A stretch of DNA of 64,000 bases from Moheibacter sediminis (GCF_900176425.1 NZ_FWXS01000009.1:1-64000); one strand, 5' to 3'. Counted from the first letter of the stretch, positions 24,183-29,479 are shown. A program made the numbers and translations. The notes: generated by a model from the letters alone, not told the origin.

Positions 24183-25559
24183 TTATCCTCTTCTTTTCTT
24201 CCAAGGTGCATTCTTTTCCCAGTCGCCTGCCATGATGCAGCCGTACGGCATTACTTCATCGATAACCGCCCCCAAGCCGAATTCCATCATTTGATTTCTT
24301 ACTGATTCTGCACTTTTGTAAGCCGTTGGCAATTCTGAAATATCGATTTCGTTGGAGAAAAACCGAATGTCCAAACCTTTAGTTTCTTCAGCAAAAATTT
24401 GTTCGGTAGTCAAATGTTTCAATGAACGCTTGTGCTGCGTTCGGCTCATGTTTCTTCCGGCACCGTGCGGTGCAAAACCTAAGTTGGTTGCAGTAGTCTC
24501 GCCTTCCACAATCAAAACCGGCTCTGACATATTTAATGGAATTAATCTCGGACCAGTGATGTCGGGCATAAATTTCGGATCAAGCGGCGTTGCACCTTTG
24601 GCGTGGTAAAACAAATCGCCGTCACGGAAAACGAAATTATGTTCATTCCAGAATCGGTTTTGTTTTGCAATTTCTAATTTTTCCAGAGTAGCGTCGTGAA
24701 TCACTTCATGGTTCAATTTTGTCCATTTTCTGATGATTTGCAACGCATCCCAATAAGCCTGACCTTCTTCGGTTTCAAATGGAATCCAGGCATTTTGTTT
24801 CAATGTTTCAGACGAAAGCACTTTTCTGAATTTTTCAGCAACGTGCATTCCTTTTCGATACAAATTCGCACCAAAACCTCTGCTTCCATGGTGTGTCACC
24901 AACATCGTATTTCCGGTTTTTTTGGAAATTCCAACAAATAAAAAATGGTTTCCGTCGCCTTGAGTACCGAGATGTCCACGTGCAGCTTTGATTGCTTTTT
25001 CGTCATTCAGGAAATAATTAGTTTGAATTTCTGCCAATAAATCTGTCGGAAATCGAAACTGCGCATCTCTTTCTCGACCGCCCGGTCCGAAATGCGTCAC
25101 GCTGTGCGCCGCATCCAAAACAGCTTTAGGGTCTGCATCACCAAAATCGGTCAGCATCACCGAACAACAAATATCGGCACTGTGCATTCCGGGATGAATT
25201 GCATTTTTCGCAACCGCAACACCGCCAACCGGAATCGTTCCGATTGGACCGGTCGGACAAGCATCAGGCATCACTGCACCGCCCACAATAGTTGGCGTTT
25301 TCATGATTTCATTCATGGTAGCCAAAACCGAGTTTACATTTTCAGTTTCCAGTTCATTTTCAGGGCGGATGTTGATAGCAAATTTAACGGCCTTTTCAAA
25401 AGGTTTAATTTCAGCAGGCAATCTGAATTGTTCCAGATAATTCATCATATTTTCTCCTTCTAATCTATTTTCATTGATATGAATTAAGGCGTCTTTCATC
25501 CATTTGCCTTGGTGAAATCCTAATTCTATTAAATCATTTCCTGTAATTTTTGTTTCCAT
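24183..25559 (-). CDS. rtcB: RtcB-family RNA ligase (RNA 3'-phosphate/2',3'-cyclic phosphate ligase)
   Basis: [10 protein letters not shown] matches the RtcB signature (HGAGRxxSR); GDGNHF and DACPTG motifs are also present. Confidence 0.85.
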
Positions 25560-25612
25560 TTTTAATTTCTTTTGACAAAGATTTGTGATTAACTGCGCAA
25601 TTATTTTGCGTA
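25560..25612 (-). promoter_or_regulatory. Promoter/operator element: TTTGTCAA box plus the 17-bp palindrome gCGCAATTATTTTGCGT, abutting the rtcB start codon
   Basis: The 52-bp element is about 95% identical to 27409-27462. The palindrome recurs at 27445-27460 and 29404-29420. Confidence 0.6.
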
Positions 25613-26665
25613 GGAATTGTAAAATTCATTTCTTATTTCAAAAATGAGGCGATTCATTTTTTCTAAATCAGGTTTTTCTTTCAATTCCGATTTTGAAAAT
25701 AATTCTTCTAAATCATTTTTTAAATTTTCAGCTTCAACAACCAAATCATCATATTCAAACTTTCCATTTTTGATGTCAAGTAAATAATTTCTGTCAGTCC
25801 TTCTCACATTCAATTTACCATCGACTGCAATTTCTTTTGCCATGTTTAACAATCGAAAGGTGTGCATCAGGTTTTTAGCATCGTAATTTTTGCCATGTGA
25901 AATTGTCGATTCATAACGGGTTTCGTTCCTTTTTTCCACCCATTCCCAATATTCTCTATATTGCTTACAATAAGTTGAATAAGCTTCGCGATTGAAATAA
26001 AGCATTGTTAAAGCTTTTTCTTCTTTTGCAACTAAACTTAAGTTCACTTCATTTGAGTTTTCTGAACGGATTATTCCTGAATAATTTGAATTTTCATCAT
26101 AAAATAAATTGAATGAATCTCGCAAATGTGGCAATTTGGATAATCCACAAAATTCTTGTTTCAGATTAAATTTATCTAAATAATATTTCAAGGCTAAAGT
26201 TTTTCCATCAAAATAAATGGTACAGAAATCCAGTACTGTTTTTCTCTCTTTTTCCATCGGGTTGGCAATTTTCTTTTCCAGCCCACGAGCTTTTTTGATT
26301 TGTGTAAAAGCATAATTTGCAAAGCTTTCATAACTTAATTTAGAAAGAAAATCTTCTGTTTCGAATTTTTCGAACAAAGGGTTTTTGTGCAAAATGCAAT
26401 CTTCGGGCGTATTCAAAAGTTCCAATATATTCGGATTGTTTTTGGCACACAACGAAGCAAATTTGTTCAACTCATAATAAACAACATCATTGGTTTCATT
26501 GTTCATTTGATCAATGTAATTCAATGAATAATACTGTTCTTTGGGCAATACAAAAACGCCTCGGATATCTGTGTCGGAAGTGGCAGTAGCCAAACCATAA
26601 GCTCGGCTTCCGCTTATACATTCAAAAATGATACTTCCTGATTTTTTGAGTTCTTCAATGGTCAT
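25601..26665 (-). CDS. Pol-beta-superfamily nucleotidyltransferase domain protein (COG3541-like), paralog 2
   Basis: The N-terminal [21 protein letters not shown] motif (GS...[DE]xD) is typical of minimal nucleotidyltransferases. It overlaps the upstream paralog by 4 nt. Confidence 0.6.
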
Positions 26666-27408
26666 AACAGTTGTTTTAAAAAGAATTCGTTTAAAGCTTC
26701 TGCATTGGATTTACCAGATTTGAGCTTGTCTTTCACGCTTTCATTTTCGGCAAAAATCTTTTTTGCCAATTCTATTAGTTCTAAAGGTATTTCAACTTTT
26801 TCTTTTTCAATTAATTTTGATTTTAATTCGATTAACTCATCCAATTTAGAATGAAATTTCACATCAATTATTGGATATAATTCTCTGAATAAAACAGGCG
26901 GAATAGTTTCTTTTTTGTAAATCCAATTGGCACAAAGTGCGGTTCGTATTGCATAAAAATATCCTTTTATGGTGAGTTCGTTTGTGCATAAAATTTCTTC
27001 AAAATTTTTACACATACTGTGGTAATGATGAAATCCTGCGATTGGATTGAAACTTTTTTCGGTTAATTTTTTCAATTCTTCCATAAAATCTTCATCGACT
27101 CTGTAAATAATTGGTGAAAAGAGCCAACCTAAAAATGATGTATTTGACTTATTTAACAATCTTAGCGTTTTTCTCAAATCCCAACCCGAGCCATCCAAAT
27201 CATCTTCTGTCATAAATTCTATGGTGTCCGTTTTCTCCGAAAGATTAAGATACCAATCTAATTTATGTTTGTACACAAAGCGGATGTCATAATCAGAATC
27301 TGGAGATTCAAAACCCCAAGCACGGCTTCCTGACTCAACGGCAAAAAGGATTTCAACACCTTTTTCCTTTTCTATTTCATTTAGTTTTTCAAGTATTTTA
27401 GTTCTCAT
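26662..27408 (-). CDS. Pol-beta-superfamily nucleotidyltransferase domain protein (COG3541-like), paralog 1
   Basis: GSRAWGFESPDSDYDIRFVY motif. Confidence 0.6.
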   Translation of the reverse strand: MRTKILEKLNEIEKEKGVEILFAVESGSRAWGFESPDSDYDIRFVYKHKLDWYLNLSEKTDTIEFMTEDDLDGSGWDLRKTLRLLNKSNTSFLGWLFSPIIYRVDEDFMEELKKLTEKSFNPIAGFHHYHSMCKNFEEILCTNELTIKGYFYAIRTALCANWIYKKETIPPVLFRELYPIIDVKFHSKLDELIELKSKLIEKEKVEIPLELIELAKKIFAENESVKDKLKSGKSNAEALNEFFLKQLL

Positions 27409-27462
27409 TTTTAATTTCTTTTGACAAAGATTTGTGATTCACTGCGCAATTATTTTACGTAC
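27409..27462 (-). promoter_or_regulatory. Second copy of the promoter/operator element, abutting the start codon of nucleotidyltransferase paralog 1
   Basis: ttttaatttcttttgacaaagatttgtgattcactgcgcaattattttacgt: a near-identical duplicate of 25560-25612. Confidence 0.6.
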
Positions 27463-27502
27463 TAAAATAAAACCCCGAATTAAAATTTAACCCGGGATTT
27501 AT

Positions 27503-28660: not shown

Positions 28661-29067
28661 TTTTTTAATTATTTTGGCGTGACCCCGCCGCGCCGCAAAG
28701 CTCTGCGGTGCGGTCGGGCTATCCGCTGTATCTTTTGCTTCATTTCATTTCGCAAAAGGATGCCGCTTCTATCCCTCACGCAATTCATTTATTTCATTTC
28801 AAAAAGGAAAACAAATGAAAAATTCATCGTCCTTGCGGCGGAATCTTTTTGAGAAATGAACGCCTGCGATTGTTGTTTCTATCCGGCTGAATTCATATAG
28901 AATCCAGTTTCGTAAAACCAAGAATGGCATTTGTTTCATTTGTGCAAAAAAGATTCAGGCTCAATTTGCGATTGTAAGCAGTTGAAATTATGAACACATT
29001 CATTTTTCCAAGAAATTACCGAATCTTTCAATTTGTTTTCCAACATCAAGAGCAGTTTTTCAAGCTG
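28661..29067 (-). other. Long GC-enriched structured leader between the tRNA-like ncRNA and the SPFH gene
   Basis: Contains hairpins (ccgcaaagctctgcgg; cccggtgaaaatcggg), three GGATAG(a/c) motifs and duplicated ttcatttc(g/a)aaaagga units. Confidence 0.4.
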
Positions 29068-29232
29068 CAAAAGCCGAATTTTAAGTTCGGTGCGTCAACC
29101 ATTCCGCCTTCCCGATTTTCACCGGGAGCAGGATTCGAACCTGCATAACTGTTACTCTAACCAACTGAGCTACTTCAATCAGAATTTGAAGATGGGAATC
29201 GAACCCACGACCGACAGGTTGTGAAGTTTTTT
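29068..29232 (-). ncRNA. tRNA-like ncRNA candidate (Y-RNA-like tRNA mimic?). It has a D-arm and two T-arms but no anticodon arm, and is followed by a hairpin plus CTTTTG.
   Basis: The minus strand reads ...GTGGGTTCGATTCCCAT (T-arm 1) CTTCAAATTCTGATTGAAG (6-bp stem with 7-nt loop) TAGCTCAGTTGGTTAGAGTA (D-arm) ACAGTTAT GCAGGTTCGAATCCTGC (T-arm 2) TCCCGGTGAAAATCGGGA ... CCGAACTTAAAATTCGGCTTTTG. It lies downstream of operator copy 3. Confidence 0.4.
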
Positions 29233-29380
29233 GGAAAACCCCTAAAACCTTCAAGTCAAATTGCATACGATTGACGATGCCTTTCGGCAGAAAACCGCAC
29301 AATGGCGCTGTACAGAAACGCTCAACAAGACTTGCTTGATATTTTTAATCTTTTTTAAAAGAACTTCTCATTTTAAATTC

Positions 29381-29422
29381 TTGACAAATATTTTCACTTA
29401 TCTACGCAATTATTTTGCGTGG
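29381..29422 (-). promoter_or_regulatory. Third copy of the promoter/operator element (TTGACAAA ... ACGCAATTATTTTGCGT), positioned to drive the tRNA-like ncRNA and possibly read through to SPFH-NTase-NTase-rtcB
   Basis: tcttgacaaatattttcacttatctacgcaattattttgcgtgg has the same architecture as the other two copies. Confidence 0.5.
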
Positions 29423-29479
29423 ATAAAAATTCTTTAAAATAATTTTAAATTAAAAAAAGAGCCGCCGAAACGGCCCCAT

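Follow-up and report, generated by a model that had tools for sequence, protein, structure and literature searches.

The RtcB locus and its structured RNA

How is an rtcB gene controlled when no RtcR is encoded nearby? The question is raised by a 64-kb stretch of Moheibacter sediminis DNA, referred to as the window (GCF_900176425.1 NZ_FWXS01000009.1:1-64000). The GAF[TS]GA signature of RtcR-type sigma54 activators was missing from all six frames of the window and Pfam scans of the locus neighbours gave no RtcR. A tblastn search likewise revealed no Rsr/TROVE gene in the window, and RtcA was not found among the 20 ORFs scanned around the locus. These results agree with an earlier, sequence-only reading of this DNA, according to which RtcR, RtcA and Rsr were all missing. 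The genes and RNAs of the locus are given below.

24183-25559, minus strand: rtcB, RNA 3'-phosphate ligase of a divergent subfamily, 458 aa (Pfam RtcB, E 2e-37)
25601-26665, minus strand: RlaP-type nucleotidyltransferase, long form, 354 aa (PF10127, E 5e-28, residues 9-126)
26662-27408, minus strand: RlaP nucleotidyltransferase, 248 aa, full-length domain (PF10127, E 8e-71)
27503-28660, minus strand: SPFH/Band-7 protein (Pfam Band_7, E 1e-31)
28708-28786, minus strand: Flavo-1 RNA motif (RF01705, 48.5 bits against a gathering score of 42)
29040-29376, minus strand: structured non-coding RNA (Rfam, nhmmer, covariation)
29480-29965, minus strand: RNase H-like protein (PF04308/DUF458, Pfam E 2e-33), a recurrent island member
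30258-30656, minus strand: array of five divergent tRNA genes (Lys-ttt, Glu-ttc, Tyr-gta, Asp-gtc, Pro-tgg)

The catalytic and metal-binding motifs of RtcB (MPDAC, GNHF, HHGSRG, HAKGAT and HGAGR) align with those of P. horikoshii RtcB. RlaP adds one or two NMPs to damaged RNA 3' ends (PMC12776372). Both RlaP-type proteins exceeded the PF10127 cut-off of 23 bits, with 239 bits for the 248-aa protein and 98.8 bits for the 354-aa protein, in which the RlaP domain forms only the N-terminal third. The five-tRNA array is a conserved neighbour of the island, and homologues of the RNase H-like protein are found beside rtcB in related loci (L001, L002, L009, L031 and L042).

The non-coding RNA is made of a conserved 5' domain (approximately 29238-29350), a YrlA-like module (29130-29237) and a tRNA-like module (29044-29116). 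The order of T-arm, closed acceptor-like stem and D-arm in the YrlA-like module is that of the permuted tRNA-like core of YrlA (RF02553), the match to this family being sub-threshold at 34.8 bits against a gathering score of 69 (32.9 bits in related locus L043). The tRNA-like module matched the Rfam tRNA model with 44 bits and was not called by ARAGORN. Homologues of the RNA were detected by nhmmer in at least 24 loci, and an alignment of 20 sequences showed compensatory changes at 40 of the 63 predicted pairs; in the closed stem of the YrlA-like module all six pairs had changed on both sides. The Flavo-1 motif sits between this RNA and the SPFH gene, with which the RNA is probably co-transcribed. 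The true SPFH start is probably the ATG at 28612, as the alignments obtained by tblastn in related loci start at residues 16-23. b7a-tRNAs are tRNA-like genes directly 5' of Band-7 genes at RtcB loci, and this is the arrangement seen here.

A palindromic operator at a fixed distance from the -7 box

Three strong 21-bp palindromes are carried on the minus strand of the window. The operator consensus is CTRCGCAAAAnnATTGCGYAG, also written CTRCGCAA-N5-TTGCGYAG, that is, 8-nt half-sites separated by a 5-nt spacer, with CGCA-N7-TGCG as the core. The corresponding promoters, a degenerate fourth candidate and the adjacent hairpins are as follows.

25576-25613, minus strand: promoter 1, palindrome 25593-25613 (CTACGCAAAATAATTGCGCAG), 13 nt, then -7-box TTTG 25576-25579; 34.7 bits
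27425-27462, minus strand: promoter 2, palindrome 27442-27462 (GTACGTAAAATAATTGCGCAG), TTTG 27425-27428; 25.7 bits
27470-27500, minus strand: terminator-like hairpin closing the SPFH unit, just 5' of promoter 2
29385-29422, minus strand: promoter 3, palindrome 29402-29422 (CCACGCAAAATAATTGCGTAG), TTTG 29385-29388; 29.3 bits
29458-29477: terminator-like hairpin preceding promoter 3
31396-31433, minus strand: candidate promoter 4, degenerate palindrome 31413-31433 (TTCCGCAATAAAAATGTGTAG), TTTG 31396-31399 (16 nt away); 11.2 bits

Allowing up to three mismatches, ACGCAATTATTTTGCGT matched the window at 25595-25611, 27444-27460 and 29404-29420 only, while shuffled controls gave a mean of 0.38 matches and none of 100 reached three. 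The scores in the list were obtained with a 21-nt weight matrix trained on related loci, for which 20 shuffled windows gave a top score of 19.6 bits and a mean maximum of 12.9 bits. At each strong copy, TTTG (TTTGTCAA on the minus strand) lies exactly 16 nt past the core. The three palindromes and a conserved promoter box near each of them had been noted from the sequence alone, and both observations held. A 52-bp duplication of about 95% identity had also been described; the duplication is real but it measures 67 nt at 93% identity (25546-25612 and 27395-27461), makes promoter 2 a duplicate of promoter 1, and extends into the first codons of both downstream genes, rtcB and the first RlaP gene. 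A half-site claimed at the SPFH start was dismissed, since it scored -2.5 bits and has no -7 box.

The units downstream of the three strong palindromes are rtcB, the two RlaP genes, and the tRNA-like RNA followed by the SPFH/Band-7 gene. The rtcB ATG is found 17 nt beyond the TTTG of promoter 1, and the stop codon of the RlaP gene that precedes rtcB shares bases with the palindrome of this promoter. As terminator-like hairpins stand directly 5' of promoters 2 and 3, these units appear to be transcribed separately. Candidate promoter 4, with a score within noise and not significant on sequence alone, has its centre 48 nt from the ATG of the WYL gene described below, which falls within the site-to-WYL range of 36-50 nt seen in 29 loci. 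It faces a conserved 42-aa ORF (31198-31326), and better sites occur in the homologous leaders of L031 and L042.

The sequence-only reading had proposed to check whether the motif is conserved upstream of rtcB. It was present there in 74 of 81 related loci, which came from Flavobacteriales, Chryseobacterium, Saprospiraceae and Sphingobacteriales, and the weight-matrix scores were bimodal. TTTG was located 14-16 nt from the core in 137 of the 143 sites scoring at least 20 bits; the spacing was 15 nt in 117 and 16 nt in 19 (136/143 overall). This downstream element is a standard sigma-A -7 box of the Bacteroidota type (AnnTTTG). When the G of TTTG is placed at -7 the dyad centre falls at about -33, and the A-rich spacer of the palindrome is on the promoter-distal side in every site. 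The operator occupies the place of the -33 element, at a near-invariant 15-16 nt from the -7 box. TTG is absent at the canonical spacing in the regulon promoters, although this is not diagnostic, because 151 background promoters from the same loci were likewise unenriched for TTG at any spacing. Of 21 SPFH genes, 17 have a site 580-1900 nt upstream, the interval being non-coding and tRNA-bearing. In L047 and L050 a site is followed by an ECF-sigma-like gene.

An independent test came from a metagenome scan with the palindrome alone, not anchored on rtcB, which returned 124 sites. TTTG was present at +15/16 in 101 of them, against approximately 1.5 expected (an estimate from base composition). 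The genes downstream encoded RtcB (37 sites), a second RtcB type (15, plus 3 N-terminal fragments), TROVE+vWA (10), RNA ligase 1 (2), PNKP (2) and RlaP (1), and more than half of the 124 sites preceded an RtcB, Ro60/TROVE, RlaP, RNA ligase or PNKP gene. Judged from these sequence comparisons, the palindrome marks an RNA-repair regulon conserved across Bacteroidota. Through their shared operator, rtcB, the RlaP pair and the unit of tRNA-like RNA and SPFH gene would constitute one regulon in the window. A similar palindrome was also encountered in two families of viral contigs, without RNA-repair context.

A rival view takes the palindrome for a generic repeat, an objection already foreseen by the sequence-only reading, or else for a hairpin acting at the RNA level (REP-like or a terminator), in either case without regulatory role. 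The palindrome is able to form a hairpin of 6-8 bp, its plus-strand copy at 29398-29426 appeared terminator-like in one simple scan, and the viral copies also speak for this view. It is nevertheless highly improbable, given that there are just three strong copies in 64 kb and that nearly all copies elsewhere stand 5' of genes, share a single orientation and a single spacing to the -7 box, and have RNA-repair genes beside them. Moreover, the spacer is conserved by sequence and not by pairing, and on the transcribed (minus) strand the palindrome is not followed by a run of U.

The neighbouring WYL protein as candidate regulator

A candidate for the protein that reads the operator is encoded upstream of the tRNA array.

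31471-32487, plus strand: wHTH-WYL-WCX transcription factor, candidate regulator, 338 aa from the ATG at 31471

Pfam assigned PF13280 (WYL, E 1.9e-15) to residues 169-236 and PF25583 (WCX, E 1.4e-16) to residues 271-346 of the longer ORF. An AF2 model of moderate quality (pLDDT 70.6, pTM 0.34) showed a winged helix, made of three helices and a beta-hairpin, at residues 2-81. Foldseek gave full-length matches to DriD (E 4e-15), PafBC (3e-13), and BrxR and CapW (both approximately 4e-8), with no other family below E 1e-4. DriD and PafBC were also the best sequence matches by phmmer, BrxR and CapW following 5-7 orders of magnitude behind in E-value in the Foldseek and phmmer comparisons.

A divergent WYL gene was found within 150 nt of the site in 40 of 68 loci, whichever gene lay opposite, its start being 36-50 nt from the site centre in the 29 loci mentioned above; in the metagenome sample the same divergent arrangement was seen at 34 of 85 sites. 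WYL is the sole recurrent DNA-binding protein beside the sites. In the window, the WYL gene adjoins only the degenerate 11.2-bit site; Chryseobacterium loci have no site near the start of the WYL gene, and in some site-bearing loci (L009, L031, L042 and L067) there is no WYL gene within 10 kb. The naming of the neighbouring WYL protein as one of the candidate regulators was well founded: on the evidence of gene neighbourhood it is a good candidate and most likely runs the RNA-repair regulon.

Could the palindrome be read by another factor encoded elsewhere, such as a transcription factor or an alternative sigma factor, with WYL merely a co-regulated neighbour? Alternative-sigma promoters, too, typically keep an upstream element strictly spaced from a downstream box, ECF-sigma-like genes lie 3' of the site in L047 and L050, and the four loci without WYL within 10 kb fit this idea. 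We consider it quite unlikely, as the downstream box is that of sigma-A, a 21-bp dyad suits a dimeric HTH protein and not sigma region 4, and WYL alone recurs with its start at a fixed distance from the site, whereas the sigma-like gene is a rare target and no constant partner.

The observed motif, with its conservation, its geometry and its associated genes, and the regulator's fold are best explained as a whole by a DriD-like, damage-sensing activator regulon run by the WYL protein at the palindrome, a reading that we hold to be fairly probable by analogy. The palindrome would be the DNA target of a dimer of the wHTH-WYL-WCX regulator, standing in for the -33 element 15-16 nt 5' of the -7 box in a group of sigma-A promoters, which would jointly make up a regulon for nucleic-acid damage. 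In the window this regulon would include rtcB, the two RlaP nucleotidyltransferases, the tRNA-like RNA with its SPFH/Band-7 unit and probably also the divergent promoter region of the regulator itself; in other Bacteroidota it may add Ro60/TROVE, the second RtcB type, a T4-type RNA ligase, PNKP phosphatase, barstar and an RNase T-like exonuclease. Damage would release single-stranded nucleic acid, either cleaved RNA (e.g. tRNA fragments) or ssDNA. Its binding to the WYL domain would free the winged helices to engage the palindrome, and the dimer, once on the DNA, would recruit RNA polymerase to otherwise weak promoters. Of these ligands RNA is a conjecture, since the literature consulted on wHTH-WYL-WCX regulators gives ssDNA as the ligand and poly-U RNA was not bound by CapW (PMC11662680).

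Activation is the most likely role of the WYL protein because its closest folds are DriD and PafBC, activators with sites that take the place of the -35 element at a constant distance from the -10. The sign is not fixed by family membership, as the family also includes the repressors CapW and BrxR, which have palindromes of ~20 bp in divergent promoters. The same regulator and operator may thus work in the CapW/BrxR manner, with the apo-WYL dimer blocking RNA polymerase over -33 until a ligand releases it. Those two wHTH-WYL-WCX proteins bind at bidirectional promoters or at their own, with ssDNA as the releasing signal (PMC11662680), the divergent WYL-rtcB pair with one shared site resembles capW-CBASS, and the operator overlaps core promoter DNA. 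Yet a repressor needs no single fixed spacing, while 136 of 143 sites keep 15-16 nt, in one orientation, across many genes and families; the WYL protein is nearer to the activators in structure and sequence, and DriD promoters have exactly this operator geometry (PMC13004042). Repression is accordingly possible but rather unlikely. From the earlier proposal of one repressor-type regulon, the single regulon with a shared operator is retained; its repressor sign fits poorly with the fixed -33 placement and the DriD/PafBC fold.

Comparison with known systems

DriD of Caulobacter crescentus is the best match in structure, over the full length, and also the best in sequence. This wHTH-WYL-WCX activator controls a DNA-damage regulon that is independent of SOS. 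According to PMC13004042, DriD binds as a homodimer to a dyad of ~20 bp that overlaps -35 at a constant distance to -10 in all regulated promoters; the operators of the window are also at a constant distance, measured to the -7 box. The two differ in that identity is just 15-20%, the operator sequences are unrelated and the window promoters are of the Bacteroidota -33/-7 type. The DriD regulon covers DNA repair and cell division with ssDNA as ligand, that of the window RNA repair. PafBC and SiwR of Actinobacteria are WYL activators that act via sigma adaptation at the -26 region, where SiwR binds (PMC10693628), and have the architecture and fold of the WYL protein described here. In DriD and PafBC promoters the activator site replaces -35 (PMC13004042). 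PafBC controls a dispersed damage regulon and, as in the window, the activator site abuts the downstream promoter element; however, PafBC is a heterodimer or fusion with an asymmetric site and different targets, whereas the window encodes a single 338-aa chain with a symmetric dyad.

The repressors CapW (CBASS) and BrxR (BREX) have the wHTH-WYL-WCX architecture in common with the window's protein, and PMC11662680 places their palindromes at a divergent or own promoter, beside a conflict-related gene island. Their fold is more distant, they are local repressors of single operons, and the literature on them, as available, yielded no fixed operator-promoter spacing over a multi-promoter regulon.

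The functional analogue is RtcR-rtcBA of E. coli and rsr-yrlBA-rtcBA of Salmonella, in which a dedicated sensor-regulator switches on RtcB repair; in Salmonella this repair goes together with Ro60 and tRNA-like Y RNAs (PMC7790460 and 10.1101/312249). The CARF-AAA+ protein RtcR senses through its CARF domain and is a sigma54 enhancer-binding regulator, in contrast to the candidate WYL regulator at sigma-A promoters, and the window differs from RtcR-RtcBA in having neither a sigma54 activator nor Rsr, nor RtcA among the ORFs scanned. Unlike YrlA, the RNA of the window has SPFH/Band-7 and not TROVE as its partner there, although the same operator is carried by TROVE genes in 10 metagenome contigs. 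YrlA-like modules are sometimes found beside Band-7 (10.1101/312249 and PMC12776372).

RtcB, RlaP (PF10127), SPFH/Band-7 and an adjacent tRNA-like RNA (b7a-tRNA) are the gene set of a repair system predicted by Burroughs and Aravind in 2016, as cited in 10.1101/312249. The gene content of the locus is therefore not new and does not in itself amount to the different wiring suggested by the sequence-only reading. The descriptions of that system in 10.1101/312249 and PMC12776372 concern gene content only, without a shared operator, promoter geometry or operator-defined regulon. Beyond the system as summarised there, the RNA has now been checked for covariation, and the operator, its geometry and the regulon appear to be previously undescribed. 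If the proposed mechanism is true, this regulon would be a counterpart of the enterobacterial RtcR circuit.

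The operator and its locus in the window

The sequence-only reading had placed a 17-bp palindrome at the promoters of rtcB, of a nucleotidyltransferase pair and of a tRNA-like RNA. A search of the window with the 17-mer, allowing up to 3 mismatches, returned exactly three matches, coinciding with the copies it had reported; the chance expectation was 0.38, and none of 100 shuffled sequences gave three. The promoter box it had described near each palindrome was also found, as TTTG exactly 16 nt after each of the three copies. Within the Bacteroidota -7 promoter box, whose consensus is TAnnTTTG, these four bases do not vary. 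The features of the locus are listed here, with coordinates in the window.

Features of the RNA-repair locus
31471 (ATG), plus strand: WYL regulator gene, divergent from the rest of the locus
31413-31433, minus strand: degenerate palindrome (site 4), from a repeat search
31198-31326, minus strand: conserved 42-aa ORF (MTKIRIHNAMQSLISQCDYRLEPKGFWNENGRYVLSLYKILM)
31142-31172, minus strand: terminator-like hairpin 3' of the 42-aa ORF
30656-30258, minus strand: five tRNA genes, preceded by a conserved leader
between the tRNA array and the hairpin at 29477-29458, minus strand: small ORF and RNase H-like gene (PF04308)
29477-29458, minus strand: terminator-like hairpin upstream of palindrome 3
29422-29402, minus strand: palindrome 3
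after palindrome 3, minus strand: structured RNA of ~330 nt, then Flavo-1 motif, then SPFH/Band-7 gene
27500-27470, minus strand: terminator-like hairpin upstream of palindrome 2
27462-27442, minus strand: palindrome 2
after palindrome 2, minus strand: RlaP (248 aa), then RlaP-like protein (354 aa)
25613-25593, minus strand: palindrome 1, overlapping the RlaP-like stop codon; rtcB is next

Apart from the divergent WYL regulator gene, the whole locus is encoded on the minus strand. The encoded RtcB keeps all catalytic motifs of the P. horikoshii enzyme, base composition is uniform throughout the window, and nothing unusual flanks the locus: the neighbours encode peptidases, an alpha-2-macroglobulin-like protein and a DnaJ-like protein. 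From the sigma-70-type promoter scan the terminator list alone was used, its promoter calls being set aside because they are not meaningful for Bacteroidota promoters.

Two further details of the claimed arrangement were revised. The element at promoters 1 and 2 is indeed duplicated, but measures 67 nt at 93% identity rather than 52 bp at about 95%, and the half-site proposed at the SPFH start was discarded as an operator, with a weight-matrix score of -2.5 and no -7 box. Site 4 scores 11.2 bits, which is not significant by itself, and its support is therefore positional: its centre lies 48 nt from the WYL ATG, within the distance range of other loci. The SPFH ORF (27503-28660) likely starts at its third in-frame ATG (28612), homologues from related loci aligning only from residue 16-23. 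DNA homologous to the 42-aa ORF region was found in seven of the compared loci (L012, L013, L014, L017, L031, L042 and L052), and L031 keeps the ORF in frame, together with a CDYR...GR[FY]V motif.

Conservation of the operator and the genes behind it

A one-genome-per-species scan with the RtcB protein gave 80 loci (69-80% identity) from Flavobacteriaceae, Weeksellaceae (Chryseobacterium), Crocinitomicaceae, Saprospiraceae and Sphingobacteriales. The palindrome is conserved upstream of rtcB, the consensus aaCTACGCAAAAwnATTGCGYAgt being present in 74 of 81 sources. The distribution of weight-matrix scores over the 1.54 Mb of loci had two modes: noise stayed below 16 bits, and 143 sites scored at least 20 bits. 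TTTG lies 14-16 nt from the core in 137 of these sites (15 nt in 117, 16 nt in 19 and 14 nt in one) and is absent from six. The half-sites, CTRCGCAA and TTGCGYAG, are symmetric and enclose an A-rich 5-nt spacer whose A-run always points away from the promoter. With the G of TTTG set at -7, the dyad extends from approximately -43 to -23 and is centred on -33. When regulon promoters were examined for lack of a -33 element, the 151 background TAnnTTTG promoters used for comparison likewise showed no enrichment of TTG at any spacing.

The genes behind the operator were listed from the 10-kb flanks of the rtcB loci and from short metagenome contigs. Features downstream of sites in the rtcB-anchored loci were RtcB (74), the 248-aa RlaP type (12) and WYL proteins (6), while 28 sites preceded no ORF (non-coding RNA) and 27 preceded other ORFs, including barstar, an RNase T-like exonuclease, DUF6331, an ECF-sigma-like protein and several unknown families. 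A site was also located 580-1900 nt upstream of 17 of 21 SPFH genes, and the intervening non-coding stretch bears tRNA or tRNA-like genes.

Scanning metagenome contigs with the palindrome only (CTACGCAAAANBATTGCGYA), which removes the rtcB anchoring bias, returned at least 124 sites in at least 120 contigs. TTTG was found at +15/16 in 101 of the 124 sites listed, where approximately 1.5 would be expected as estimated from base composition. Behind the listed sites were genes for RtcB of the window's subfamily (37), classic RtcB of ~390 aa (15, plus 3 N-terminal fragments), TROVE and Ro60-vWA proteins (10), T4-type RNA ligase 1 (2), PNKP phosphatase (2) and RlaP (1), together with HEPN AbiU2, DUF5677 and unknown families. 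Because of this gene set, we read the palindrome as a signal specific to a regulon of RNA repair and RNA conflict, not as the generic repeat at hundreds of unrelated loci that would have spoken against the sequence-only reading.

Ro60/TROVE+vWA genes with the same operator and -7 box are found in other Bacteroidota, in metagenome loci L104, L109, L118, L132, L143, L167, L175 and L179, and on this basis the Ro60 and SPFH systems appear to have one regulator in common within the phylum. Some of these Ro60/TROVE stretches encode SPFH too.

A GC-rich hairpin was observed ~45 nt after the predicted start in 38 of the 143 palindrome-driven transcripts (24 rtcB leaders and 12 non-coding RNA leaders; for example L005:9905-9940 and L043:7865-7905). 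It has covarying stems of 8-11 bp and a ACGAGGAG-like loop, matches no Rfam family, is absent from the window, and might add a second layer of regulation or serve for processing. Matches in IMG/VR viral contigs (L081-L103) were set aside: the 23 matches amount to 2-3 sequence families with an AAAAAAA spacer, roughly the level that we estimate for chance. These families carry CTACGCAAAAAAATTGCGYACTAC with no TTTG at +15/16 and no RNA-repair genes; the copies may have arisen by chance, or may serve a related regulator in mobile elements.

A WYL-family candidate regulator

The WYL protein is the sole recurrent DNA-binding protein among the loci, and in most of them its gene is divergent from rtcB or another target. 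The distance from site centre to WYL start codon is 36-50 nt in 29 loci and at most 150 nt in 40 of 68, and this closeness holds whichever gene stands on the other side. In the metagenome set, a divergent WYL start lies within 400 nt of 34 of the 85 listed sites with enough flanking DNA, and a WYL homologue is encoded in 70 of 124 stretches among the matches listed. The WYL protein is thus our candidate binder of the operator and putative regulator of the regulon.

The window's protein has WYL and WCX domains, and its AlphaFold model (pLDDT 70.6) shows an N-terminal winged helix. A Foldseek search of the PDB with this model retrieved wHTH-WYL-WCX regulators only, led by DriD (E 4e-15, including 2026 RNA polymerase complexes) and PafBC (3e-13), with BrxR and CapW at ~4e-8; phmmer ranked them in the same order. 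At least 7774 close relatives carry no annotation beyond 'helix-turn-helix transcriptional regulator', 'WYL' or 'YafY family'. Some orthologues, of 574-581 aa, are fused C-terminally to a PhyH-type Fe(II)/2-oxoglutarate dioxygenase domain (PF05721), as seen in proteins P0074-P0076, P0080, P0108 and P0113 (Fluviicola and relatives) and at loci L018, L029 and L063.

The wHTH-WYL-WCX family includes activators and repressors, according to PMC11662680. The sequence-only reading had assumed a repressor, and CapW-type repressors do use palindromes in divergent promoters too. However, in well over a hundred promoters, which belong to many gene families and several bacterial families, the dyad at -33 keeps a near-invariant distance and orientation, which a repressor would not require, and in fold and sequence the protein is nearer the activators DriD and PafBC than the repressors. 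For these two reasons we favour an activator, which we hold to be probable; SiwR and PafBC are described as acting at the -26 region (PMC10693628). A repressor on the same operator seems possible but rather doubtful to us, and any other reading quite improbable, so that of the 'one repressor-type regulon' the shared operator was retained and the sign was not. As for the ligand, the regulon content suggests cleaved RNA, in line with RtcR, since the RtcR-controlled operon is regulated by damaged tRNAs (PMC7790460). By contrast, ssDNA is the ligand in the wHTH-WYL-WCX regulators described in PMC10693628 and PMC11662680.

RNA components and relation to known systems

The RNA behind palindrome 3 gave a YrlA match at 29130-29237 (34.8 bits) and a tRNA match in Rfam at 29044-29116 (44 bits, not called by ARAGORN). 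Membership of YrlA was rejected, its score lying below the Rfam gathering score of 69. Using nhmmer, this RNA (~290 nt) was found in at least 24 loci, and an alignment of 20 sequences supported 63 pairs, with compensatory changes in 40. The supported fold comprises, in order, a closed 5' domain, a T-arm/closed stem/D-arm of YrlA design, and a second module of T-arm/closed stem/D-arm/anticodon-like arm. It fits the 'band 7-associated tRNA' and the layout, occasionally found, of YrlA beside Band-7, both credited to Burroughs and Aravind 2016 in 10.1101/312249, and for this reason we assign this evidently real, structured RNA to a known predicted class. Between this RNA and the SPFH gene lies a Flavo-1 motif (28708-28786, minus strand) above the Rfam gathering score. 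A Flavo-1-like sequence in locus L012 (~9915-9990, judged by eye) has the reverse orientation with respect to rtcB. This points to an intergenic repeat of either orientation more than to a part of the system.

The five-tRNA cluster at 30258-30656 (minus strand; Lys, Glu, Tyr, Asp and Pro) has low tRNA-model scores of 38-57 bits and has orthologues in other genera, where arrays of 8-21 tRNAs stand beside rtcB islands (L002, L005, L009, L013, L031, L042, L045 and L055), the 1.54 Mb of loci containing 184 tRNAs. The array tRNA-Asp is near-identical between genera and far from the window's housekeeping tRNA-Asp (45998-46072). As we read the sequences, anticodon-loop position 37 is U in the Asp and Glu tRNAs of the array, and its tRNA-Pro carries A37 in place of G37. 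The array members may be spare or nuclease-resistant tRNAs. Upstream lies a ~170-nt element (GAGACAGAC...CGGACAGGA...AATTCAAAA...ATCTTTGCACCG; window ~30900-31065 and 30676-30700, minus strand) whose sequence is conserved across at least 27 loci, mostly directly before such arrays. A conserved terminator-like hairpin comes after it and abuts the first tRNA. The element might be an attenuator or a promoter dedicated to the array. Direct control of the array by site 4 was rejected: in at least 27 loci a conserved element and promoter of its own precede the array, the palindrome is often absent near such arrays elsewhere, and a terminator-like hairpin separates site 4 from the array's upstream element.

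The gene content of the locus corresponds to an already predicted RtcB/RlaP/Band-7/tRNA-like system, as described in 10.1101/312249 and PMC12776372, and RlaP adds 1-2 nucleotides to damaged RNA 3' ends (PMC12776372). Some WYL association was probably already noted by Burroughs and Aravind in 2016, since the group later referred to that work for the recognition of cyclic nucleotides or 2',3'-cyclic RNA ends by WYL domains (PMC7824862). Our literature search found no report of a WYL-rtcB link in Bacteroidota, nor of the operator, its fixed promoter geometry, an operator-defined regulon or a DriD-like mechanism for Bacteroidota RNA repair.

The WYL family has so far been linked mainly with ssDNA sensing and with DNA-damage or phage-defence control, and would here be extended to RNA repair, for which a candidate regulator can now be named. 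The comparative-genomics regulon joins RtcB, RlaP, Ro60/TROVE, SPFH with tRNA-like RNAs, RNA ligase 1, PNKP and barstar in one response spanning Bacteroidota, human-gut contigs included. Its operator, CTRCGCAA-N5-TTGCGYAG placed 15-16 nt from the -7 box, is precise and testable, and the promoter could serve as a reporter to probe the real inducing signal. A mode of regulation is also suggested for Bacteroidota Ro60/TROVE genes; commensal Ro60 orthologues are discussed as lupus triggers.

More speculatively, and with some scepticism on our part, a phylum-wide RNA-damage response can be imagined in which a DriD-like WYL activator would sense cleaved RNA, such as tRNA halves, instead of ssDNA. 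Through one fixed-geometry operator it would switch on ligases (two RtcB types and Rnl1), end-healing enzymes (RlaP and PNKP), scaffold ribonucleoproteins (Ro60 or SPFH with tRNA-like RNAs) and RNase inhibitors (barstar). Neighbouring spare-tRNA arrays would work alongside, their unusual anticodon loops (U37) perhaps resisting anticodon nucleases.

To our knowledge, the enterobacterial RtcR with sigma54 is the sole worked-out circuit by which RNA damage is sensed and RtcB induced. The system described here is predicted to be a WYL-family damage regulon wired to RNA repair on -7/-33-type promoters, which would take the functional place of RtcR/sigma54; the phylum-wide response imagined above would do for RNA damage what the SOS and PafBC/DriD regulons do for DNA damage.
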